Positions 16,953-54,112 of a stretch of 64,000 nucleotides of DNA are shown here, one piece after another. Below the pieces are notes generated by a model that was not told the DNA's origin, did no database searches, and was given only the letters and a program-made list of their open reading frames with translations. The DNA is from an uncultured bacterium (GTDB lineage Bacteria > Patescibacteriota > Minisyncoccia > UBA6257 > 2-01-FULL-56-20), in the NCBI GenBank assembly GCA_963768625.1, contig CAVYIK010000003.1, forward strand, positions 64,625 to 128,624, written 5' to 3'. Made by a program: the position numbers and the translations under genes. Position 1 is the stretch's first letter; every line of letters begins with the position of its first letter.

Positions 16953-18711
16953 ATGCGTCGGCTTTTAGGGAATATTTTTCGTTGGAATCGAACTCCGCGG
17001 TTATCGTCGTGACGCCGCTAGATCCCACCTTGAGGTTCTTTATCTCGTTCCCGTCCACTTTGTATTCCATCCCTTTCTCGTCGACGGCCCTCGAAATATC
17101 GAGACCGGAAAAGGAATCCTCGGTTCCCGCCCTCAGGACAAGATCGAATGTTTTTTTCGCGTTCCGGCTTCTGATCACCAAAACATGTTGGATCTTCCTG
17201 CCCTCGGCGTCTTTTTTGACGAAACTTCGGAATCCTATCTCGCAGCGTTTCCGACCGTTGTCGGGCCTCGGCGTTACCCGTTCTCTCGGCATCTTCCAGA
17301 CCGGAATCTTTATTTTTACGTCCTCCTCCGCCGCGTTTATGCCGACCTCCGGTCCCTCGTCGTTCTTTGCCCCAAACGAATCCGCACCGTCTGCCTCTTT
17401 CGCTTCCCTGTCCATACCGGGGATCCCCAATATATCCCTGAGGCCCGGCATGTCCATGGACTCCGAATCTTCGGAAATCATGCTCTTGAGCGACTCTTTG
17501 ATGAATTCATCCAACTCCTTCATCGCACGGGGAAAGAGTTTTTTGTCCATCGTACTGTCCGCGGCATTATGCCTGTCCCATTCGTTGTGCGCGGCGTTTT
17601 CCATTTCGCGGAGAATGTCGTTTCCCTCGGACTTGCATATAAAAACTCCCGCAAAGGCCTCCGCGCTTCTCCTGTCTATCCTCTGAATTACCATGCCCGT
17701 TTTCCGTATGCAGGCTATCCGTTTCCTGTAGATTTCCCCCGGCAATACGTGCAACTCGACTTCCCGGAGGGTCGGAAGGGTCTTTTCGAAGAGTATTTTG
17801 CCGTTTACTTTTTCCGGCGTCGTAAAGGCGCGATAATACGGCCAGGGATTGGGATCTTCTTTGTTGTCGTCTGGCTCGTCTTCGGGGAAATACTTCTTCA
17901 GAAGATGCTCCAGATTGTTTTTCCTGATTTTTATATCGCCGACATCGACTTCCAATGTGTTGTCCAGTATCGCGTACCAGTAGTAGTTGAGGACCGCCTT
18001 AACGATATCTTTTTCCCAGGTGTCGCCCCAGCGAAATCCCAAAATATAGATATCCGTACCTTGTTCGTCCCTGTAAAATCCGGTCGGAATCGATTCGGGG
18101 TTGCGCACTGGCTCCAGATTCGGATTTCCGAAGTATCCGCACGACTGCTTGACGTCGCCGTCCATTTTGAAACTGACCAGCTTAAGTCTACCCTGGAATA
18201 TGTGCTTGTCTTTCTCGTATACGCTGGAAACAAAAATTGTTCTGAAATGTGATGCTATAAAAAACGCGTGCTTACCCAAGCCGAATGCACCGCCCTTGTC
18301 GCCCCCTTTTTCGGCGGTGCCGTCGACTTTCATCAATTTGAAATAATTTCGGTCGGTCAGGCCGCTCGTATTGTAATCCGAAATTTTCAACGTATGAATA
18401 TCCCTGTTGCGCGTGAGAAGATCCAACGCGTTGGAAAAAAATTGCTGGGTTTTTTTATCTTTCGGCCAGTGTTTTTTGCATGCCGAAAAAACGCTTTCGA
18501 GCTGATTCCTTTCGGGTATCCACGAACCCTTTATTTTGACAAGGTCGAATGTCGCTTTTACGGGATATGCGATTGCGGCGTCGATAATATTCTGTATGGC
18601 TTCCCTCGTCACGTGGTACGGTACGTGACCACGAAAATTTTCCATGGCTCCGTCGTTGAACCCGTTCTGTATGCCGCCGCCCGTGGATGGAAATTCGTAA
18701 ACGAGTCCCAT
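16939..18711 (-). CDS. defence-operon gene 2: GHKL (Bergerat-fold) ATPase, MORC/paraMORC-like (590 aa)
   Basis: N-box TREAIQNIIDA, G1-like ISDYNTSGLTD and G2 GDKGGAFGLGKHAFF. The C-terminal ~350 aa are unassigned. Confidence 0.8.
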   Translation of the reverse strand: MGLVYEFPSTGGGIQNGFNDGAMENFRGHVPYHVTREAIQNIIDAAIAYPVKATFDLVKIKGSWIPERNQLESVFSACKKHWPKDKKTQQFFSNALDLLTRNRDIHTLKISDYNTSGLTDRNYFKLMKVDGTAEKGGDKGGAFGLGKHAFFIASHFRTIFVSSVYEKDKHIFQGRLKLVSFKMDGDVKQSCGYFGNPNLEPVRNPESIPTGFYRDEQGTDIYILGFRWGDTWEKDIVKAVLNYYWYAILDNTLEVDVGDIKIRKNNLEHLLKKYFPEDEPDDNKEDPNPWPYYRAFTTPEKVNGKILFEKTLPTLREVELHVLPGEIYRKRIACIRKTGMVIQRIDRRSAEAFAGVFICKSEGNDILREMENAAHNEWDRHNAADSTMDKKLFPRAMKELDEFIKESLKSMISEDSESMDMPGLRDILGIPGMDREAKEADGADSFGAKNDEGPEVGINAAEEDVKIKIPVWKMPRERVTPRPDNGRKRCEIGFRSFVKKDAEGRKIQHVLVIRSRNAKKTFDLVLRAGTEDSFSGLDISRAVDEKGMEYKVDGNEIKNLKVGSSGVTTITAEFDSNEKYSLKADAYENK

Positions 18712-18720
18712 GTTCGTAAT

Positions 18721-18939
18721 TTATAGTTTGAATTCCTCGTCCTTCGGCAGATGAAATTTCGCCTTCGCCTCTTTCACGGCCTGGTCGATTTCCGAAAAGA
18801 TTTTACGGAAATCGCTTCCCGTGTACGAGTAATTACCCCGGTTTCCGCAGTTTCCCAGTATCCGGAGATCCCGCAGTATCGCTCTAACCCTCCGTTCCGC
18901 TACCCTTTTAAATCTAGCCTCTTTTGACTCTTTTTCCAT
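18721..18939 (-). CDS. defence-operon gene 1: small basic helical protein (72 aa)
   Basis: ORF track, 9 nt upstream of gene 2: KRVAERRVRAILRDLRILGNCGN. No motif recognised. Confidence 0.55.
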   Translation of the reverse strand: MEKESKEARFKRVAERRVRAILRDLRILGNCGNRGNYSYTGSDFRKIFSEIDQAVKEAKAKFHLPKDEEFKL

Positions 18940-19087
18940 ATTTTCTATGTTTTATAAGGTTTTTTCGACGTTTTATACGCTTATTATGTGATTCCTAGCG
19001 TAAATACTATTCTATTGTGCTCCTATAGGAATATATGTCAAGTGGACAAACTGTTAATACAAAGGAGTGAATTATAGAAGAATAGCG

Positions 19088-19492
19088 CTATTTCATGATT
19101 CGCGCTATCTTTTTCGCTACATATTCTGGGTTGCGCTTGATCTTCGACCCATAAAACCTGAGGACCCGATACCCCGCCTTTCGCAACGCCCTACTCTGGA
19201 GGCGATCCCTGCGGATATTGCCCGCGATCTTTTTGCGCCAAAAGGCGGGAACGTCGGATTTCCATTTCCCGAAACCTCTCCCGTGCCAGAAGTCCCCGTC
19301 GGCGAAGATCGCGACCTTCGATACGGAGAAAACGATGTCGGGTTTGCCTGGCAGCGTTGTGACGTTTTTCCTGTATCGTTCTTTTCTCTGGAACTGCCTG
19401 ACAATCTCCGCCAACAATTTTTCGATGTCGGTATTTTTCGTGCCGACTTTCGCCATCAAAGCGCTGCGTTTCTCCTTCGTTAATTTATCCAC
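19088..19492 (-). CDS. vsr: very-short-patch repair endonuclease Vsr
   Basis: RSALMAKVGTKNTDIEKLL, LPGKPDIVF, AIFADGDFWHG, FWRKKIAGNIRRD and AGYRVLRF follow the Vsr family pattern. Confidence 0.85.
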   Translation of the reverse strand: MDKLTKEKRSALMAKVGTKNTDIEKLLAEIVRQFQRKERYRKNVTTLPGKPDIVFSVSKVAIFADGDFWHGRGFGKWKSDVPAFWRKKIAGNIRRDRLQSRALRKAGYRVLRFYGSKIKRNPEYVAKKIARIMK

Positions 19493-46949: not shown

Positions 46950-47022
46950 GCCCCTATAGCTCAGTTGGTAGAGCAGCTCCCTTTTAAGGAGACGGTCCCA
47001 GGTTCGAATCCTGGTGGGGGCA
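46950..47022 (+). tRNA. tRNA-Lys (anticodon UUU)
   Basis: GCCCCTA-TA-GCTC-AGTTGGTA-GAGC-A-GCTCC-CTTTTAA-GGAGA-CGGTC-CCAGG-TTCGAAT-CCTGG-TGGGGGC-A. CCA is not encoded. Confidence 0.9.
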
Positions 47023-47128
47023 CACACAACATTTCGTATCGCAGCATCGTGAGAGCCGACACCCTAGCGCGACCGCGAGACACCAGGTTTATAATAGAAA
47101 GATGTGCTGGTTTTGGAAACGAAAATCT

Positions 47129-47887
47129 ATGGACTTCAAACAATCTTCTATTCCAGAAATATTGGACAGCGAGCGAGAGATGGTTCTTGCCGGTGCCAAG
47201 CGGTACGGCGAGTTTTTCGAGAATGCTTCCGGATTTAATAACCTTCTGAATAATTTGATCAAGTCCATCGATAAGCCGGATAGATTTATTTTTATTCTGT
47301 TTTATTCACAGGTTAAAAAGCATCACACCCTAGCTCTTTTCTCGGCACTCCGGCTCCATCACCTTCAAGCCGGAATGGACCTGAGGCAAACCGTCGAGGC
47401 GGCGCAGTGGGCAGCGTATGCGATGGATAGTCCTCAAAAGGAGAAATTCGTCGAGGAGGATGAAAGCGGCCTCGTCATCACAAAAAAGAAACACCAAAAA
47501 GCGATGTACGCATGGCTTGATAAAAATTTTGACGTTAAGGCGGGAGAATTCAAAAATTTGAAGGGACAAATCAGTGGATCGGTTGCTCATTCAAGCATCA
47601 TTTATGCGTTCCAGAATTTTGAAATGCGGCCAGCCCATAACCCTGGGTTCAAAATCCCATTTTTCGACATAGAAGATGATCATGTGGTGAAGACGGACCT
47701 GTGGTCCGTTGCGAATACCGCACTCGGCGTGTTGGATTTGTTCTATGGTGCCAATGAGCGTTATAAAGTTTTTAGATTGGTGGATGGCTTTGATGCTAGA
47801 TACCAAGAACTCGTTAAACAAAATAACAAGCTGAAAGGTGAAATGATGCAGAGCGAAAGATTTAAAAAAGCTACTTCGCGAGAGTGA
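47129..47887 (+). CDS. hypothetical protein (island cargo)
   Basis: Internal ATG (MDFKQSS) of ORF 47102..47887. No motif recognised. Confidence 0.6.
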   Translation: MDFKQSSIPEILDSEREMVLAGAKRYGEFFENASGFNNLLNNLIKSIDKPDRFIFILFYSQVKKHHTLALFSALRLHHLQAGMDLRQTVEAAQWAAYAMDSPQKEKFVEEDESGLVITKKKHQKAMYAWLDKNFDVKAGEFKNLKGQISGSVAHSSIIYAFQNFEMRPAHNPGFKIPFFDIEDDHVVKTDLWSVANTALGVLDLFYGANERYKVFRLVDGFDARYQELVKQNNKLKGEMMQSERFKKATSRE

Positions 47888-49208
47888 GTGTCTTCTGACT
47901 GAACACGAGCTTACTCTTGAAGCAGGATAGTAACTCTCGCTTCTCCATCGCGCTACCTTTCTTGAGAAGATATTTTGCATAGGTTTTGAGGTCGATTTCT
48001 TTGGTAGCCTCTTTTGGGGCTTCGCCCAAAACGTCATTCGTGAATTTGCGGTACCGCTCCATCTCATCCTCAAATTTCTTTTGCATCCCGATCTCGCTGA
48101 TATCCATCCCGTCGATAATGGTGAGGAGTTGCGCAATCAATTCTTCCTCGCGAATATATCCACATTTGCAATCCTTGTCTTTCGACCTTGTGCATCCATA
48201 GTAAACGTACCGTACAGTGGTGCCGTTCTTATGCGCCTTGTATTTCTCGCACGCACTGATGCCCGATCCGCATAGGCCGCAGCTGATCAGCTTCGTGAAA
48301 GCGAATTCCTTTATCTCCGACCTGATCACGAAATCGCGGTGGAGCTGTTCCTGCACTTTGTCGAACAGCTCACGCGATATTATTGCTTCGTGCTTGCCTG
48401 TATACCAGTTCCCACTTTTCAACGGATATTCAAAGATGCCGCAGTAGAATGGGTTTTTGAGGATGATGTAAATATTCGAGAGCGAAAGCGCTTTTCCGTT
48501 TTTCGTCCTGAATTTTGTCTCGGATTTGAGCCAATGATAGAGCTTACGGCCGGACCACTGTTCGTCCGCGACTTTCTGAAATATCTGCTTGATGACGGAT
48601 GCTCGCATCGAATCGATGATAACTTCGCATGGACGGTCCGTGCGTTTTTCGTTGAGATATCCAGTGGGCGCGATTGATGGACGGAGTCCTTGCTCGCATC
48701 GCGTCCTCAAGCCGCGTTTCACATTTTCTGATTTATTGTCATTTTCCAATTTTGCCTGGCTGCATAGAATCATCAGCATGAATTTCTCGCTCGGCGAGTT
48801 CGTGAATTTCTGGCTAAAGGTACGGATTTCGATTAGCAATTTTTGATCCATCAAATCCACCAGCGAGCCGAGGTCGCCCGCGTTACGGCTCAACCGATCT
48901 GGCGCCCATGTGAGAATGCCATTGAATTTGCCGGAACGAATGTCGGTCAGTAGCTCATTGAAAATCTTGCGTTGCCCGACCGCTTTTGCAGAGTGATTTT
49001 CTTTTCTTACCTCCGCGATCTCAAGACCGTCGCGCTCGGCGATCTTCAACATCTCCTTTATCTGGCTATCGATCGAGAGGACCTGTTGCTCTTCGCTCTC
49101 GGTACTCTTTCTCGCATAGAGGCAGTATTTTATTTTTATGGCCTCGGCCCTTGCTACGGAAACGCCCGACTGGTCCCAACTCTTTGGTATGGTTGTTATT
49201 TTCTCCAT
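47871..49208 (-). CDS. large serine recombinase (resolvase/invertase N-domain + recombinase domain + zinc ribbon)
   Basis: CLYARKSTESEEQQVLSIDSQ (catalytic Ser region), APDRLSRN, and a Cys cluster CGLCGSG...YYGC...C.C. Confidence 0.85.
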   Translation of the reverse strand: MEKITTIPKSWDQSGVSVARAEAIKIKYCLYARKSTESEEQQVLSIDSQIKEMLKIAERDGLEIAEVRKENHSAKAVGQRKIFNELLTDIRSGKFNGILTWAPDRLSRNAGDLGSLVDLMDQKLLIEIRTFSQKFTNSPSEKFMLMILCSQAKLENDNKSENVKRGLRTRCEQGLRPSIAPTGYLNEKRTDRPCEVIIDSMRASVIKQIFQKVADEQWSGRKLYHWLKSETKFRTKNGKALSLSNIYIILKNPFYCGIFEYPLKSGNWYTGKHEAIISRELFDKVQEQLHRDFVIRSEIKEFAFTKLISCGLCGSGISACEKYKAHKNGTTVRYVYYGCTRSKDKDCKCGYIREEELIAQLLTIIDGMDISEIGMQKKFEDEMERYRKFTNDVLGEAPKEATKEIDLKTYAKYLLKKGSAMEKRELLSCFKSKLVFSQKTLTLAK

Positions 49209-49346
49209 ACCTCAAGGGATGCCGCAACGGTGGCAGGAATCCAGAGCGTCCGAATTGGTAACTCAAAGACCCCTACAAGGCGACGAAGGGGCAAAGAAGG
49301 CAAGGAGCGTGATGTCCCCAATTTTTTCGGTAGTCAAAATGCTACA

Positions 49347-50696
49347 ATGAATGTAATGAATCGAGACGGATTTGCCGCAGTTATTCTCCTATTCGCCGTC
49401 CTCGCACTGGCCGTGATCGGTGGGATTGCCTACGTCCATTATGTATATCTGCCGAAGATAGCGGCGCAGAATAATAATGTCGCGCAACCAACATCAACTT
49501 CTGCCTCATCATCGCTTCCCGCATCAGCGACCCCGATTGCTACCACTACCGCCACGCAAGCGGCCGCAGGATCGAAGGCCTGCGCAGCGAACGATATGAA
49601 TTGTCTCATAGCGGCGGCGGCAAAATGTTCTCCGGCAGCCGTTGAATGGACCGCGACAGTTAATTTCCTAGATGTCTTTACTGAAACCGCACAAAATCAT
49701 CTTGCTTTGAAGGGATTGAGTTCTGCTGGAAAGTGCGCCTTCTCCGAACGAGTTGACGATGTCAGTTTGGCGGTAACGTCCCAGGCCGAACAGCAAGCGA
49801 AAGCACAAGGCGTAACCGATGCGCAAATCCAACAGCAATTGCAGGCGTCGAATGCGCAAGCAAAGCAATCGATAGGCATGACAACCTCATGCACGTTCAC
49901 TACGACCTATCTCGTGCAGATGCTCACTAATTGGCAAAAGGGAAATATTAGCTCAAGCGATCTCACGTCGGAAAATTGTACGGCAACCGATGCGGGCGGC
50001 AAATCCTTGCCGCTTCCCAATGCGAACGGGGTGATATCGATAACGCCCAGTGGCCAAACAGCTCCCCAGCCAGTAGCGACATCCGGAGGGAATCAGGGAT
50101 CTACAAATTACTTCGAAGGGAGCCTAACCGATCTATCAAGGATGGATGTTGTTGTGTCGTCTGGCGATTCGTTGGTGCTTGATCAGCTTGGTTTGACGAT
50201 AAAGGCAACGAGCGTGACTGCGACGACGTTCAGCGGAACAGCGACGAAATCAGGACAGACACAAAGTTTTTCATTGACTGCGGGGAACCAAGTCACTGCA
50301 TTCGGCTACGTCATTACGCTTCACGATATTGAAACCGGAACGCAGTACACCGATATTGCTGGCAAGCAAGTGTCGCTCCTCGCCGGAGCACTACACATAA
50401 CAGCTACCTCCGCCACGACGTCCGGATCCGGAATTACGACGATAACTCTAGGTGCGCCGAGTGATATTACGTCTGGAAATCTTGAATTTAAAGTAAGCTC
50501 TGTTTACGTGAGCCAGATGAGCATGACCGTGGTTAACCATACAACTGACCAGAGCGCTGCTGTAACGCTAAACGTTAATCAACCAATGACGGTGCTGGGC
50601 TATACTATGACTGTAACGGGCATTAAAGATGTCCAGGGAACGAATTCGCTGGGGCAGGCGACATTTTCCAACGAAGCCACTTTAACTTATCAATAA
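49347..50696 (+). CDS. membrane-anchored/secreted Ser/Thr/Ala-rich protein (island cargo)
   Basis: In-frame ATGs at 49347 and 49356 within ORF 48972..50696. N-terminal TM FAAVILLFAVLALAVIGGIAYV. A TACAAT at 49343-48 would favour a leaderless start at 49356. Confidence 0.65.
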   Translation: MNVMNRDGFAAVILLFAVLALAVIGGIAYVHYVYLPKIAAQNNNVAQPTSTSASSSLPASATPIATTTATQAAAGSKACAANDMNCLIAAAAKCSPAAVEWTATVNFLDVFTETAQNHLALKGLSSAGKCAFSERVDDVSLAVTSQAEQQAKAQGVTDAQIQQQLQASNAQAKQSIGMTTSCTFTTTYLVQMLTNWQKGNISSSDLTSENCTATDAGGKSLPLPNANGVISITPSGQTAPQPVATSGGNQGSTNYFEGSLTDLSRMDVVVSSGDSLVLDQLGLTIKATSVTATTFSGTATKSGQTQSFSLTAGNQVTAFGYVITLHDIETGTQYTDIAGKQVSLLAGALHITATSATTSGSGITTITLGAPSDITSGNLEFKVSSVYVSQMSMTVVNHTTDQSAAVTLNVNQPMTVLGYTMTVTGIKDVQGTNSLGQATFSNEATLTYQ

Positions 50697-50709
50697 AATA
50701 ACAGAAACT

Positions 50710-51330
50710 ATGAAAATCATAAATCAAACGACCGATGAGATGGCGCTCAAGGATGGCTCCTTTTCATCGCTCATCATCGGAGCCGTTTTAATTGTCATCG
50801 GTGGATATATAAGCTATTCCACCTATGCTTCCTCTGGCTTTTCCAATAATGCCATCTGGATCGCGGTGGTGATTTTCGCAGCCGGAATCGTAACGATTCT
50901 TTTGAGCAGTTCCATCACGATTGATATCAATAAATCGGGCGGCCAGATAGCGTATCAGAAGAAACGCCTGATTGGTTCTCAATCATCCGCTTACAACGTT
51001 GCGGACGTGCTTCGGGTTGAAACAAGAAAAGCGTGGAAAACAGTTTCTTCCTCGAAAGGAGGATCAAGTCAAGTGCTCGTATCCCAATCGGTAATCGTGC
51101 TTAAGGATGGCCAGGAAGTGCCGCTTGACCATCAGAAGCAATCTTCGGGATTCTCGGGCATTCTTATGAGCGGCCAATCAAAAGAATCCGCAGTCGCCAA
51201 TCAGGTGGCAACATTTCTCGGTGTTCCGTTCCAAGAGATAGCCCCGCCATCTGCCCGTGAGCTTGTGGAAGCTGTCCGCGAAGGCATCGAGGAGGGAATA
51301 GACAAGAGAAAAACCGACCAACAGGGATAA
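50710..51330 (+). CDS. hypothetical membrane protein (island cargo)
   Basis: 206 aa with two N-terminal TM helices, then a soluble domain. Confidence 0.6.
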   Translation: MKIINQTTDEMALKDGSFSSLIIGAVLIVIGGYISYSTYASSGFSNNAIWIAVVIFAAGIVTILLSSSITIDINKSGGQIAYQKKRLIGSQSSAYNVADVLRVETRKAWKTVSSSKGGSSQVLVSQSVIVLKDGQEVPLDHQKQSSGFSGILMSGQSKESAVANQVATFLGVPFQEIAPPSARELVEAVREGIEEGIDKRKTDQQG

Positions 51331-51342
51331 GGGGTGGGCAAA

Positions 51343-51790
51343 TGAGACACCGCCCTGACATGCCATATAGTGTCTCATCTGTCTCATTTACCCGGAAAAG
51401 CCTTATTTTACGGTCATCGACTTTTCGAAATGAGACACGCGTCTGTCTCGTTTGGACACCTGTTTTGTGTCTCAAGGTGTCTCAAATTTTCCGTTTCGGA
51501 CATGTCCGGAATGGCCTTCCGATGTCCGATTTGTCCGATTTGCCGATTTTTGGCACACGGGAATGGCACACTAAAAAGTGCCTATGCAGTGTGCCATTTG
51601 TGCCCTTTTCTCTCAAAATGTTACTCGCCGAAACTGTGTAACATTTGTAACATTTTGGAGCGTTGCACCAGGGATGTTGCATTTCAGGCCCCTCGAAAAT
51701 CCTGAATTTTCAGGCTATAGCCAGCTGCACCGCTCCGGAAACGCCGTTTCCCAAATGTTACACATCACGTTGCATTTGTTGCATGTTACA
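51343..51790. repeat. non-coding tract with five families of short tandem/inverted repeats (iteron-like)
   Basis: GTGTCTCA/TGAGACAC at 51343, 51370, 51431, 51467 and 51477. TGTCCGA/G at 51503, 51523 and 51532. TGGCACAC at 51551 and 51564, inverted at 51589. GTAACATT/ATGTTAC at 51618, 51638, 51647, 51754 and 51783. GTTGCA at 51662, 51676, 51769 and 51778. Palindrome CCTGAATTTTCAGG at 51701-14. Confidence 0.8.
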
Positions 51791-51922
51791 TTTCAATCCA
51801 AAACCCCAGACCGTGAGCCTTCCAAGGGAAATTTGGGGTTGCCCTCAAAAACCCTTATACTGATTGCATAGGGAAAGTCCGCACCCGTGAGGGGGCACAC
51901 TGCCCGAAAGCACACAGCCCCG

Positions 51923-53029
51923 TTACGCTTCCCCACCCAGTTCCTCGAGAAGTTTTTGCGCCTTCGCGCTCAATTTTTTCGGGGCTTTGACGATGAAGTT
52001 CACGAAAAGGTCTCCCCGCCCGTACGAACCGAAATGCGGCATGCCCTCGCCCGGGATGCGGAGATTATCCTTGAGGTTGAAGCCGGCAGGGATCTCCACG
52101 GAGATCTTGCCACCCGAGATGGTAGGCGCTTCTATCTTTTTGCCCAAAAGGAGCTCCACCACTTTCAATTCCTGCGTAACGACGAGGTTCGCGGCATGCC
52201 GTTCAAAGAGATGGTGCGGCTTCACACGTACGCGGACATAGAGGTCGCCTGCGGCGGTGCCTCGCTCCCCTGTCTCACCCATTCCCTTTATCTTGATAAG
52301 CTGGTTGTCCGCAATGCCGGGCAGGAGCTCCACTTTCACTTCGCGGTCAGCGACAATGCGGCCGGAGCCCTTGCAGGCGCCGCATGCTTTCTTCGGCACC
52401 TCGCCCGTCCCGTGGCATTTGGCGCAGACCTTCACCTGCGAGAAATTACCGAAGAACGTCCGGCGCTGTTCGCGGATCTCGCCGCGGCCGTCGCAGGTCG
52501 CGCACTTTTCAAAACCGCTGCCCGCCTCGGCGCCCTTGCCGCCGCATTTCGCGCACTGCGTGAAGGTCCGCAGATGCAAGGTCTTTGTGACGCCGCGGAA
52601 CGCCTCCTCAAGCGTGATCTCCTCGTGCATCTCAAGATCCGACCCGCGCTCGTAGGTCTTCCGGGGCTGGCGTACGCCCATTCCCTCAAAGAAACTTTCG
52701 AAAATGTCCCCGAGGTCGCCCATGTCGCCCATTCCCTGCTGGTCGAAATCAAACCCGAACCCTCCGCCCGGGAAACCGCCGCTCCACTGCTGACCTCCAA
52801 AACCGCCGAATCCGGCGCCCGGCTCCGCTGTCCCGAACCGGTCGTAATTGGTGCGCTTCGCTCTGTCCGATAATATCTGATACGCCTCGTTGATCTCCTT
52901 GAATTTCTTTTCGTCGCCGCCCGGCTTATCCGGATGGTACTGGTGGGCAAGCTTGCGGTACGCCTTTTTTATTTCCTCATCCGAGGCGCTCTTCGTGACC
53001 CCCAAAATGTTGTAATAATCTTTTGGCAT
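51923..53029 (-). CDS. dnaJ: molecular chaperone DnaJ
   Basis: J domain (DYYNILGV...HPDK), a G/F region and four CxxCxGxG zinc motifs. Confidence 0.95.
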
Positions 53030-53080: not shown

Positions 53081-54112
53081 TTAATACTGGACGATTTCCT
53101 GTGTCTGCGCGGCTTTCTCGATATGCATGAAGCCGGCGGCAAGGAGGATCTCGTAGACCACGAGCGAAACCAATTGCGCGGCCCAGACGAAAACGACGCC
53201 GATCGTCCGCAGGGCAAGGAACAACACAATCGCCCAAATAAAGATGAACTGGCTCTGGAAACGGTTCCGCCAGCCCGAAAGGGCGGCGACGATGTAGTTA
53301 TAGACCACGGTGCTCATAAGGTCGCTCGGCGCGGGCACTATCCCCGTGGTGTTCGCGACCCCCTGCGCGAGCTGTGTTGACGCCTGCGCAATGGCCGCGT
53401 CCTGGGCCTGCGGACTCAAGGTGGAAAAGGTCGGATTTTTTTGGAGCTCCGATTTCGCCACGTCCCCCGCAAACTGGCCGAACGAACCCGTAAAGGAAAT
53501 GCCGGGATAAAAACCGGAGAGCGATCCTGCGGCCCAGTCAAAGAACGTTTTGAAGTTGGCTTGCGGGAAGAACGTGCCCCGCCCGTCCACCTGCGGCGCA
53601 TAGACAAGGATCATGAAGACGATCGCGGCGGTCACCACCTTTCCGAGCACGTTCCGGCTGATCCTGAAAAATTGCAGTTCCAAGCTGTTGTGCGCTTCGG
53701 AGTGGCTTATGAAATATCCCCATATCAAGACGACGAACGCTACCGCACCCGTAAGGGCGACGATCTGCCAGTCGTCATAAAAGACGAACGGGGCAACGAG
53801 CGCGATCGCTTCCGCAAGGACGATGAACGTCCGCCGCACGATGTTGCGCGCAAGAAAGACCTGCAGGACGGAAAGCGCGGAAAAGACGAAAAATGTCCCG
53901 ATCACGTACCACGGCGAAATGCCGACCGTGAGGTACCGGAAATAGACGTACCCGAACGCGAGCGCCGCAAAGACGCTCAAAAAATCGAGCATGATCGATT
54001 TCCAATAACCCGGCGGCCTGCCGAACGAAACCGTTTTAGTGCTGATCAGGTTTTGATCCGGGATCGGCACTGGAGGCGGCGTCGTTCCCGCCATGATCTG
54101 TCTGAGGTCCAT
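53081..54112 (-). CDS. polytopic membrane protein of unknown function, embedded between dnaK and dnaJ
   Basis: 343 aa with about 8 TM helices. The annotated start overlaps the dnaK 3' end by 77 nt. An alternative start is at 53992 (MLDFLSVF). Confidence 0.65.

Follow-up and report, generated by a model that had tools for sequence, protein, structure and literature searches.

A conserved array of short-repeat cassettes beside a large serine recombinase in Patescibacteria islands: a possible protein-binding accessory arm

The repeat tract and its cassettes

The window analysed here is a stretch of 64,000 nucleotides (64 kb) of contig CAVYIK010000003.1, from an uncultured bacterium of the Patescibacteriota, and our subject is a repeat tract at positions 51331-51890, close to one end of a small genomic island that carries the gene of a large serine recombinase (LSR). 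The tract lies within an intergenic gap (51331-51922) between convergent genes, bounded by an upstream 206-aa open reading frame (ORF) that stops at 51330 and by the host dnaJ gene, which stops at 51923. A first-pass annotation, made from the sequence alone, had described a dense non-coding array of five distinct short-repeat families together with a perfect palindrome. All of its motifs and coordinates were recovered, with a single 1-nt slip (ATGTTAC given at 51754, found at 51755). GTGTCTCA occurs at 51370, 51467 and 51477 on the plus strand and at 51343 and 51431 on the minus strand. TGTCCGAT was found at 51523 and 51532, with TGTCCGGA at 51503 and TGCCGAT at 51541, and TGGCACAC at 51551 and 51564, with an inverted copy at 51589. 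GTAACATT is present at 51638 and 51647, ATGTTAC at 51618, 51755 and 51783, and GTTGCA at 51662, 51676, 51769 and 51778. The perfect palindrome spans 51701-51714 as described, but it was kept in no homologue of the tract and is probably incidental.

In order to evaluate the repeat content, the segment 51331-51890 was compared with 1000 dinucleotide-preserving shuffles. Positions of recurring 8-mers numbered 80, against 15.3 +/- 7.1 in the shuffles (maximum 43), tandem 7-mer pairs at 8-14 bp spacing numbered 7 against 0.2 (maximum 3), and TGTNNNATT sites on both strands numbered 12 against 0.56 (maximum 4). For all three measures the observed value was matched by 0 of the 1000 shuffles, which confirms the array of repeats as such. 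Tandem Repeats Finder and a repeat finder returned the same 9-10-bp tandem pairs as well as many inverted pairs. The array is local: the tract holds 12 of the 26 TGTNNNATT sites of the window, and no exact family 9-mer was found in the rest of the 64 kb. Dispersed palindromic repeats (REP/BIME, BOX) and DNA-uptake sequences were rejected, as all exact family copies in the window fall inside the tract. Like the tract, BIME/REP and BOX mosaics consist of palindromic units downstream of convergent genes, with modules that are gained and lost; however, they occur in hundreds of dispersed copies per genome, whereas the present units are confined to the tract within the window and go with a single kind of mobile island.

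While the dense array of short repeats stands, its families turned out to be variants of one another. All site types share a common frame, GTGTnnCATTT (TGT-nnn-ATT, where nnn is CTC, CCG, GCC, AAC, TGC or TAC). The tract is made of six self-contained cassettes that form a stack of ~460 bp, each with 2-5 copies of one 9-11-bp site, and alignment with homologues showed that each cassette holds one site type throughout its copies. In the same alignment the full-cassette layout reads [xTGnnnACAC]-N3-[AATGnnnACAC]-N15-20-[GTGTnnnCATT][TGTnnnCATTTT]. Tandem copies are spaced by 9 bp (10 bp in cassette 2), inverted partners often lie 20-30 bp upstream of the tandem copies, and the inverted copies themselves are spaced by 7-14 bp. 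Each cassette type has its own constant interval between inverted copy and tandem pair (about 30, 27-30 and 20 bp). In the window the order of the cassettes is CTC, CTC, CCG, GCC, AAC, TGC, then an inverted AAC site with TGC.

Cassette 1 (CTC type, 51340-51389) comprises an inverted AAATGAGACAC at 51340-50 and the tandem copies GTGTCTCAT (51370-78) and TGTCTCATTT (51380-89); it was kept in 7 of the 7 homologues covering that part. It is followed by a conserved non-repeat block, AAAAGCCTTATTTTACGGnCATCGAnTTTT (51396-51427), which carries on its minus strand a -10-like TAAAAT facing the LSR, and a similar box, CCTTATTTT, was found in the distant arrays of loci L026 and L027. The block may serve as a promoter. 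Cassette 2 (CTC type, 51428-51485) is composed of AAATGAGACAC (51428-38), TCTGTCTCGTTT (51442-53), GGACAC (51454-59) and the tandem copies of GTGTCTCAA at 51467 and 51477, 10 bp apart. Cassette 3 (CCG type, 51494-51551) starts with TTTCGGACA and TGTCCGGAA placed back to back (51494-511), followed in 9 bp steps by TGTCCGATT at 51523 and 51532 and TGCCGATT at 51541. In cassette 4 (GCC type, 51551-51609), the two copies of TGGCACAC at 51551 and 51564 are 13 bp apart and are separated by a 17-nt spacer from GTGTGCCATT (51589-98) and TGTGCCCTTTT (51599-609). Cassette 5 (AAC type, 51615-51656) contains AAAATGTTAC (51615-24) and the tandem copies GTGTAACATT (51636-45) and TGTAACATTTT (51646-56). The TGC type consists of direct repeats only and is split in two: cassette 6a starts at 51662 with GTTGCA and includes TGTTGCATTT (51675-84), and cassette 6b, beyond a spacer that contains the non-conserved palindrome, ends at 51793 and is formed by AAATGTTACAC (51753-63), GTTGCATTT (51769), GTTGCAT (51778) and GTTACATTT (51785-93).

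Related arrays and what their comparison says

Clear homologues of the tract were detected by blastn and nhmmer at loci L003, L015, L034, L110, L111, L125, L137 and L138. Arrays of the same design, with no detectable sequence similarity to the tract, lie near LSR genes in L026, L027 and L059, and weaker matches, with either the array or the island's terminal segment, were observed in L017, L025, L037, L039, L065, L089 and the viral contig L143. Homologous arrays were counted in no fewer than 12 related LSR islands, which come from metagenome-assembled genomes (MAGs) of Patescibacteria and from metagenomes. At loci that also hold the LSR gene, the array is always on its 5' side, on the opposite strand and 0.07-11 kb away, the lone exception being a second, truncated copy in L034, located downstream of a distant second LSR. 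The only parts common to the array-bearing islands are the LSR, the array and the attachment (att) ends. Judged from these comparisons, the three are the conserved backbone of the element and the array is under purifying selection.

The cassette sets differ from island to island. Their order is CTC, CCG, TCC, AAC, AAC, GCC, TGC, TGC in L138 and L111, and CTC, CCG, AAC, CCC/TCC, TAC, TAC in L015, while both the CCG cassette (cassette 3 of the window) and the GCC cassette are missing from L003 and L125. The counterpart of cassette 4 is of TCC type in L138 and L111 and of AAC and CCC/TCC types in L015, all copies being altered jointly. The TGC type is found solely as direct repeats in 9 of 9 homologues, and the block 51753-51793 is near-invariant in 8 of the 9. 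In L015, all five TGC copies, which form two clusters 80 bp apart, have changed to TAC in concert. The alignments thus depict cassettes that are gained, lost and reordered as whole units.

One explanation of such a pattern would make the tract repetitive DNA without a function, a product of 9-bp duplication by slippage and of palindrome formation that the island carries as a passenger. Slippage does happen, since one 9-bp unit and a 9-bp loop duplication set the near-identical L111 and L138 apart. Yet at deep divergence the array is more conserved than the recombinase gene (DNA identity of 76-81% for the array and 67-68% for the LSR gene between the window and L034 and L003), the order, orientation and position of the array are fixed in at least 12 islands, and the non-repeat blocks are conserved as well. 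We regard this origin as highly improbable.

The homologues also speak to coding capacity, and the absence of any credible ORF, noted at first pass, was borne out. Similarity to the homologues exists in all six frames, but none is kept open, which also disposes of small proteins conserved in homologues. A 99-aa ORF proposed by a gene caller (51342-51641) was rejected, as its frame is not conserved, every homologue has its ORFs disrupted in a different way and the cassette indels are not multiples of 3. Minus-strand mini-ORFs (ATG-nnA-CAA-ATG-nnA-CAC, that is MxQMxH) were likewise rejected: the CCG type has no ATG, the TAC type would read ATG-TAA, and there is no ribosome-binding site.

A structured RNA deserves closer attention. 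The tract could encode 3' hairpins of the cargo operon on the plus strand, acting as stabilisers or terminators, a long leader or antisense RNA transcribed toward the LSR on the minus strand, or small RNAs. Most cassettes have inverted arms of 10-13 nt, and on both strands the tract folds far better than shuffled sequences (z = -4.65 and -4.66). The 3' arms on the plus strand lead into T-runs, and cargo is always transcribed toward the array. One cassette of L015 has unlike outer and inner arms (GGAACA versus GGGACA), which are paired in nested fashion, and swaps of cassette type alter both arms together. However, the folding score is equal on both strands, an outcome expected from any set of inverted repeats. 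Among 43 inverted pairs, the arm mismatches comprised 26 that would be G.U on the plus strand, 22 that would be G.U on the minus strand and 24 transversions, that is, no strand bias. RNAalifold on seven homologues gave an unfavourable covariation term (+3.61), with compensatory changes at 5 of 67 pairs, 2 of which come from the cassette replacement in L015; the power of such a test is limited with 7-9 homologues. Moreover, the best-conserved block, that of the TGC cassettes, consists of direct repeats without a complementary partner, and the fixed 9-bp tandem duplication of the 3' arm serves no hairpin. No terminator-like site was called in the window tract, and no Rfam match reached the gathering threshold, the relaxed search (E<=10) giving chance-level matches alone (E of 1 or more). 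A conserved structured RNA in homologues was thus looked for, and neither an Rfam match nor RNA-type covariation was seen. On balance, an RNA product appears unlikely, though it keeps some real weight. The tract contains no tRNA or tmRNA, and T-box or anticodon/codon mimicry by the variable triplets was rejected, as there are no flanking stems and no T-box sequence. A sigma-54 promoter (TGGCAC...TTGCA) was discarded because its spacing, read off the sequence, is wrong.

The island, its ends and its genes

The island measures 4.9 kb (~47024-51900) and contains the tract entirely; the position at the distal end of a recombinase island, as first described, was borne out. The GC content of the island is 0.43-0.54 (mostly 0.45-0.51), against 0.55-0.63 in the flanks. 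On the left, the island abuts a tRNA-Lys(UUU) gene (46950-47023, plus strand, called by ARAGORN and Rfam), whose 3' end constitutes attL (GGGGGCACAC, 47016-47025), and this junction was mapped to 47024-26. The right junction, attR, is located at ~51899-51901, about 100 bp past the last cassette. Beyond it, dnaJ (51923-53029, minus strand, Pfam) lies outside the island and convergent with it, in DNA whose GC climbs to 0.59-0.63. GGGGGCACAC is present as a direct repeat at both ends (47016-25 and 51891-51900). Over its final 24 nt, AGTCCGCACCCGTGAGGGGGCACA, the right end agrees with the tRNA-Lys T-arm and acceptor 3' strand at 16 of 23 positions, and the right end of L111 likewise resembles the 3' end of tRNA-Gln.

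The limits of the island are also marked by L015, a MAG locus whose LSR is 91% identical to that of the window. Both island ends of the window recur there, ACACAACATTTCGTATCGC on the left and ...CCGCGAGGGGGCACA on the right, identity with the window on the right running to GAGGGGGCACA, after which the sequences diverge. The L015 island adjoins a different tRNA gene, tRNA-Arg(UCG), with a tRNA 3' fragment, and divergence starts directly after the ends. Because both ends are shared and the two loci diverge right beyond them, we place the island at the limits given above, with the tract inside; because the left end of L015 sits at tRNA-Arg, one island type uses different tRNA genes. At 11797-12000 of L015, a second tRNA-Arg-like gene, present as a 3' fragment, comes 27 nt after the intact tRNA-Arg(UCG) and is itself followed by a window-type island end.

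Between the last cassette and the right junction lies a terminal segment of ~105 bp (51796-51899, plus strand). It includes the box GACCGTGAG (51809-17), the box CTCAAAAACCCTTATACTG (51844-62), which carries an outward-facing -10-like TATACT (51855-60), and the P arm AGTCCGCACCCGTGAGGGGGCACA (51876-99). This segment is kept in many LSR loci, where it holds a GACCG(T/A)GAG box, the box CAAAAACCCTTATACTG and a tRNA-like P arm. The features of a simple LSR attachment site, namely short quasi-symmetric ends common to related elements elsewhere, are displayed by the terminal 25-30 bp only, with the cassettes outside. A (C)CGTGAG box is repeated in the terminal segment (51809-51817), in the P arm (51884-51891) and ~25 nt inside the left end (47045-47053), so that in a circular form its copies would flank the crossover as direct repeats; GACCGAGAG boxes are the equivalents in the LSR islands L037, L059 and L089. 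Three terminal segments in the same orientation were observed within 15 kb of one MAG chromosome in L034 (5922-6005, 7864-8467 and 19974-20142), one with a full array and one with a single AAC tandem pair. The second, distant LSR of this locus (35% identity) is at 18466-19476. Islands seem to have accreted here in tandem, at an att site that was reconstituted.

The LSR (445 aa; 47871-49208, minus strand) has Resolvase, Recombinase and Zn_ribbon_recom domains according to Pfam, PHROGs and NCBIfam. Relatives with 60-91% identity were found at more than 576 loci, mostly labelled as MAGs of Patescibacteria or the Candidate Phyla Radiation (CPR), so that a CPR bacterium is very probably the host. 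Three cargo genes accompany it in the window, all on the plus strand. The first encodes a 252-aa protein (47129-47887) that has no family match and is not found in other array-bearing islands. Gene X (49230-50696) encodes a protein with an N-terminal transmembrane helix and a Ser/Thr-rich surface region; it has no family assignment, and 7 homologues were found among 5.8 billion proteins. Gene Y (50710-51330) encodes the two-transmembrane protein of 206 aa that ends at the tract. X and Y both read toward the array. Between the window and L003, protein identity was 63% for the LSR, 55% for Y and 43% for X. The X-Y pair travels with LSRs in the window (49230-51330), L003 (4488-6189) and L004 (10001-11607). 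At 1884-3688 of L002, X is beside the LSR, and the counterpart of Y, itself of ~200 aa, is a DUF3592 protein.

In the window, 2.1 kb of cargo separates the LSR gene from the array. In L111 and L138, the array ends ~70 nt from the LSR ATG, and the cargo (a trypsin-SH3 protein and a 198-aa ORF) is on the other side, downstream of the LSR. Other islands have unrelated cargo between LSR and array, always opposite to the LSR and transcribed toward the array: L003 and L125 carry a RelE-like toxin-antitoxin pair there, L015 and L034 a set of proteins that includes Ig-like ones. The coordinates of the toxin-antitoxin pair, of RelE/ParE type, are 2510-2990 in L003 and 2656-3252 in L125. Apart from the LSR, no protein common to the array-bearing islands was found.

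The island also appears as a discrete object in assembly data. Logan unitig L001 (ERR11594402), of 4886 bp, is 100% identical to positions 46996-51881 of the window. Its left break at 46996, 30 nt before 47025, is an exact fit to the left junction, while its right break at 51881 fits no simple empty-site model. Because this unitig equals the window from 46996 to 51881, the island acts as a separate unit of the assembly graph, as an excised or variable form might. For attP, the predicted junction is ...CCGTGAGGGGGCAC joined to ACACAACATTTCGTATCGC, and the predicted empty site is ...CCTGGTGGGGGCACAC joined to TGCCCGAAAGCACACAG.

Such discreteness could fit what had been proposed at first pass, a replication origin or partition site in an integrated plasmid- or phage-like replicon, in which case the repeats would be the iterons or centromere sites of an excised circle, recognised by an initiator or by a protein of ParB/ParR type. 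Mixed clusters of short direct and inverted repeats are typical of origins, and iteron origins and plasmid centromeres (parC, parS, omega-type heptads) have in common with the tract short tandem and inverted repeats at near-helical spacing. However, the proposal found no support. When the island proteins were compared with Pfam, PHROGs, NCBIfam and PADLOC, none matched Rep, a primase, a helicase, ParA/B or ParR, and the LSR is the sole protein common to the islands. The repeat units, of 9-11 bp, belong to at least five types, are spaced by 9, 10 or 13 bp and are often inverted, unlike single-type iterons of 17-22 bp. No AT-rich unwinding region was found, the tract having a GC content of 0.46-0.50, and by eye the sites do not match the DnaA box TTATNCACA. 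A comparison of the tract with 72,556 plasmid and 50,697 phage records revealed no similarity. The predicted attP junction had no match in IMG/VR, and L001 is a linear unitig in which no terminal overlap was found. Several repeat families with no Rep/Par partner gene, in an island of the chromosome where a recombinase is the one conserved gene, are not what iteron origins or centromeres look like, and we consider an origin or partition site very unlikely. DnaA boxes, dif/Xer, parS, LexA, integron attC/attI and Mu/Tn7 ends were compared by eye and rejected for misfits in sequence, spacing or orientation.

Two features elsewhere in the window were recorded. A 343-aa ORF without Pfam match (53081-54112, minus strand) occupies the gap between dnaK and dnaJ, where grpE or no gene would be expected, and overlaps the dnaK 3' end by 77 nt. 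At 10805-10877 (minus strand), ARAGORN called a tRNA-like gene of undetermined anticodon ('tRNA-???', 'gc'), which scores 44.6 bits with the Rfam tRNA model against ~70 for the other two tRNAs.

A possible protein-binding arm

The first-pass annotation had also taken the tract for a dense array of protein-binding sites. This part of it stands, as protein-binding DNA accounts for the pattern better than RNA or a coding sequence would, and the multi-operator control region that it listed is close to the reading that we favour. In our preferred reading, the tract is a cis-acting, double-stranded protein-binding arm that controls the expression of the recombinase and/or recombination. We hold it tentatively, at somewhat less than an even chance. 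The cassettes would act as double-stranded DNA bound cooperatively by one or more sequence-specific proteins. The resulting nucleoprotein complex would form between the upstream side of the recombinase gene and the crossover site, and would set the expression of the recombinase and/or the efficiency or direction of integration and excision. The ~105-bp terminal segment would end in the tRNA-3'-end-like half-site where the recombinase crosses over. We infer the binding of protein, the identity of the binder (the LSR, or host or helper factors in trans) and the output in recombination or expression alike. The LSR or factors in trans come into question as binder since no island-encoded candidate is conserved.

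Several observations argue for this arm. The array is more strongly conserved than the recombinase gene, and its position and orientation relative to the LSR and to the att end are fixed. Strand-symmetric clusters of one site type, whose copies change together, are what double-stranded protein-binding sites look like at the level of sequence, and the concerted change from TGC to TAC in L015 is the pattern expected when sites co-evolve with a binding partner. In other recombinase systems, the recombinase gene has promoters and an array of binding sites in direct and inverted orientation next to it (PMC7157771).

Other observations weigh against it. In the minimal islands no conserved DNA-binding protein was found besides the LSR and no binder was identified, and we know of no large serine recombinase that uses accessory sites. 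The cassette set is independent of the type of att end, three types of end being found with the same cassettes. It does not track the LSR clade either: L015, with the LSR closest to that of the window (91% identical), has the most altered set. Both points speak against the cassettes being read by the att-recognition surface of the LSR. With five or more site types, either several specificities or a single protein tolerant of the central bases would be required, and a tolerant protein would leave the identity of sites within a cassette unexplained. The last cassette is ~100 bp and the first ~560 bp from the crossover, and a distance of ~560 bp exceeds any accessory arm known to us. The motifs are missing from the LSR-X intergenic region and from the remaining island, so that there is no sign of a dispersed regulon. 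Finally, consensus scans found no recurrent sigma-70 promoter; the -10 candidates picked by eye (the minus-strand TAAAAT and the outward TATACT at 51855-60) are not universal among the homologues and were not called by the scans. The idea that cassettes mimic LSR att half-sites was also considered. It was rejected, as the likeness is weak and partial (GGCACAC in the GCC type versus the tRNA end, AACATTT in the AAC type versus the left end) and the cassette set does not follow the att-end type.

Among known systems, the res sites of the Tn3/gamma-delta serine resolvases come to mind, which likewise are compact arrays of short inverted and direct sites upstream of a serine-recombinase gene and include promoters. 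Placement directly upstream of the recombinase gene is seen in L111 and L138, whereas cargo intervenes in the window. The gamma-delta half-site, which we take to be TGTCYNNTA (e.g. TGTCCGATAAT), resembles TGTCCGATT and TGTCTCATT; looking for this consensus string in the literature gave no match. There are clear differences. A res site spans ~120 bp and has three subsites, every one built from an inverted pair of the same 12-bp consensus, with TGT outermost, whereas the tract has six cassettes of at least five types over 460 bp, with TGT inward. The res crossover takes place inside subsite I; here the array stops ~100 bp short of the crossover, which falls at the end of the island. The resolvase is small, with a C-terminal helix-turn-helix, unlike the 445-aa LSR with its Recombinase and Zn-ribbon domains. 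In Tn3-family transposons, a toxin-antitoxin pair is often found directly upstream of the resolvase gene, as is the pair upstream of the recombinase gene in L003 and L125 (PMC7157771).

A second comparison is offered by the complex attP arms, such as the lambda P arm with its Int arm-type, Xis, IHF and Fis sites, the P2 cox boxes and the L5 Xis sites. As in these arms and in the irs of Tn4430 and integron attI, both of which have direct repeats, a stack of direct and inverted repeats stands between the recombinase gene and the crossover core. Likewise, tandem sites are about one helical turn apart and several site types lie side by side. Complex attP arms, however, work with a tyrosine integrase that has an arm-binding domain and with a directionality factor encoded by the element, whereas here the enzyme is a serine recombinase and there is no conserved small DNA-binding ORF. 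The attP sites of LSRs are described as simple, of ~50 bp. All these systems have their accessory and regulatory sites in the very space that the array fills, from the upstream side of the recombinase gene to the crossover site, and this is why we propose such a role for it. We class the tract as a variant of recombinase-associated accessory-site arrays, whose composition of exchangeable, mixed-type cassettes linked to an LSR is unlike any array known to us.

The serious alternative is a hitch-hiking signal read by helper-phage proteins, that is, a pac/cos-like site bound by the small terminase of a helper phage, a transfer origin, or sites at which proteins of several helpers trigger excision, with cassettes matching different helpers. 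The minimal islands consist of recombinase and cargo and have no means of transfer, and multiple, shuffled cassette types would suit multiple helper specificities. Related LSRs occur in phage-like elements, as in L004, with terminase and ParB-methylase genes, and in the viral contig L143, which has the same architecture. Viral contigs also show the same tandem pairs and multi-family arrays, L011 beside a terminase-like gene and L139 and L161 with AAC/TAC-type sites. However, the viral matches are confined to ~20 nt with nothing similar beyond the motif, and some of them are coding (N-termini KCxKCxTIKK, a collagen-like repeat). In addition, no helper was identified, and pac sites normally consist of one repeat family. 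We judge a hitch-hiking signal to be quite unlikely.

The viral matches themselves are diverse. The exact 21-mer GTGTAACATTTGTAACATTTT of cassette 5 recurs in 11 viral loci, in ~8 different contexts; L143 is one of these loci, and L011, L139 and L161 are others. The match of ACGTTGCATTTGTTGCATGTT in L007 was dismissed as a chance match, in a stretch without other array features. Many viral matches of GTGTNNCATTTGTNNCATTT were set aside too, being coding or simple 9-mer satellites. In the viral loci L149, L154, L156, L192, L198, L199, L227 and L256, tandem 9-mers lie in the context CCTTTTTTATAGTGTnnCATTTGTnnCATTT. The opposite strand of this repeat reads as an N-terminus K-C-x-K-C-x-T-I-K-K (e.g. 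MSKCHKCHTIKKEK) with a CxxC motif, and the repeat is probably coding. At 1700-1840 of L011, just 3' of the terminase-like gene, eight TGAGACA/TGTCTCA sites are followed by three TGTACGCA-type sites within 130 bp, the design of successive clusters of different sites being that of the window tract. L013 (IMGVR_UViG_3300020195_001307) repeats itself with a period of 9117 bp and is probably a concatemer or circular element of ~9.1 kb; it has ribonucleotide reductase, NUDIX and PfkB-like genes, the NUDIX gene being preceded by a GTGTCTCATTTGTCTCATTT pair and an inverted copy of it.

Returning to the protein-binding arm, a bolder version of it can be formulated. LSR elements of Patescibacteria, and of some phage-like relatives, may possess a modular att-site arm of exchangeable cassettes, each read by a different host or helper factor in trans and together gating excision, integration or recombinase expression. 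We see this as a speculative proposal that is more probably wrong than right by a wide measure. The cassettes are precise short sites (GTGTnnCATTT with defined central bases) and are therefore open to direct tests by DNA affinity purification sequencing (DAP-seq) or footprinting.

The literature searched contained nothing on these islands, on such arrays or on accessory sites of serine integrases. The conserved backbone of LSR, array and att ends defines a family of small islands of Patescibacteria that an LSR moves into tRNA genes and that seems not to have been described before; its members shuttle surface and membrane proteins, toxin-antitoxin pairs and proteases. Large serine recombinases owe their wide use in genome engineering to sites that are regarded as simple and independent of host factors; they are thought to need sites of only ~50 bp plus a protein directionality factor. 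A modular array conserved across a whole recombinase family would mean that DNA outside the minimal site controls some of these enzymes. If the modular arm is real, it would be the first accessory-site system for large serine recombinases, and the minimal islands, which have no directionality-factor gene, could sense several partners.

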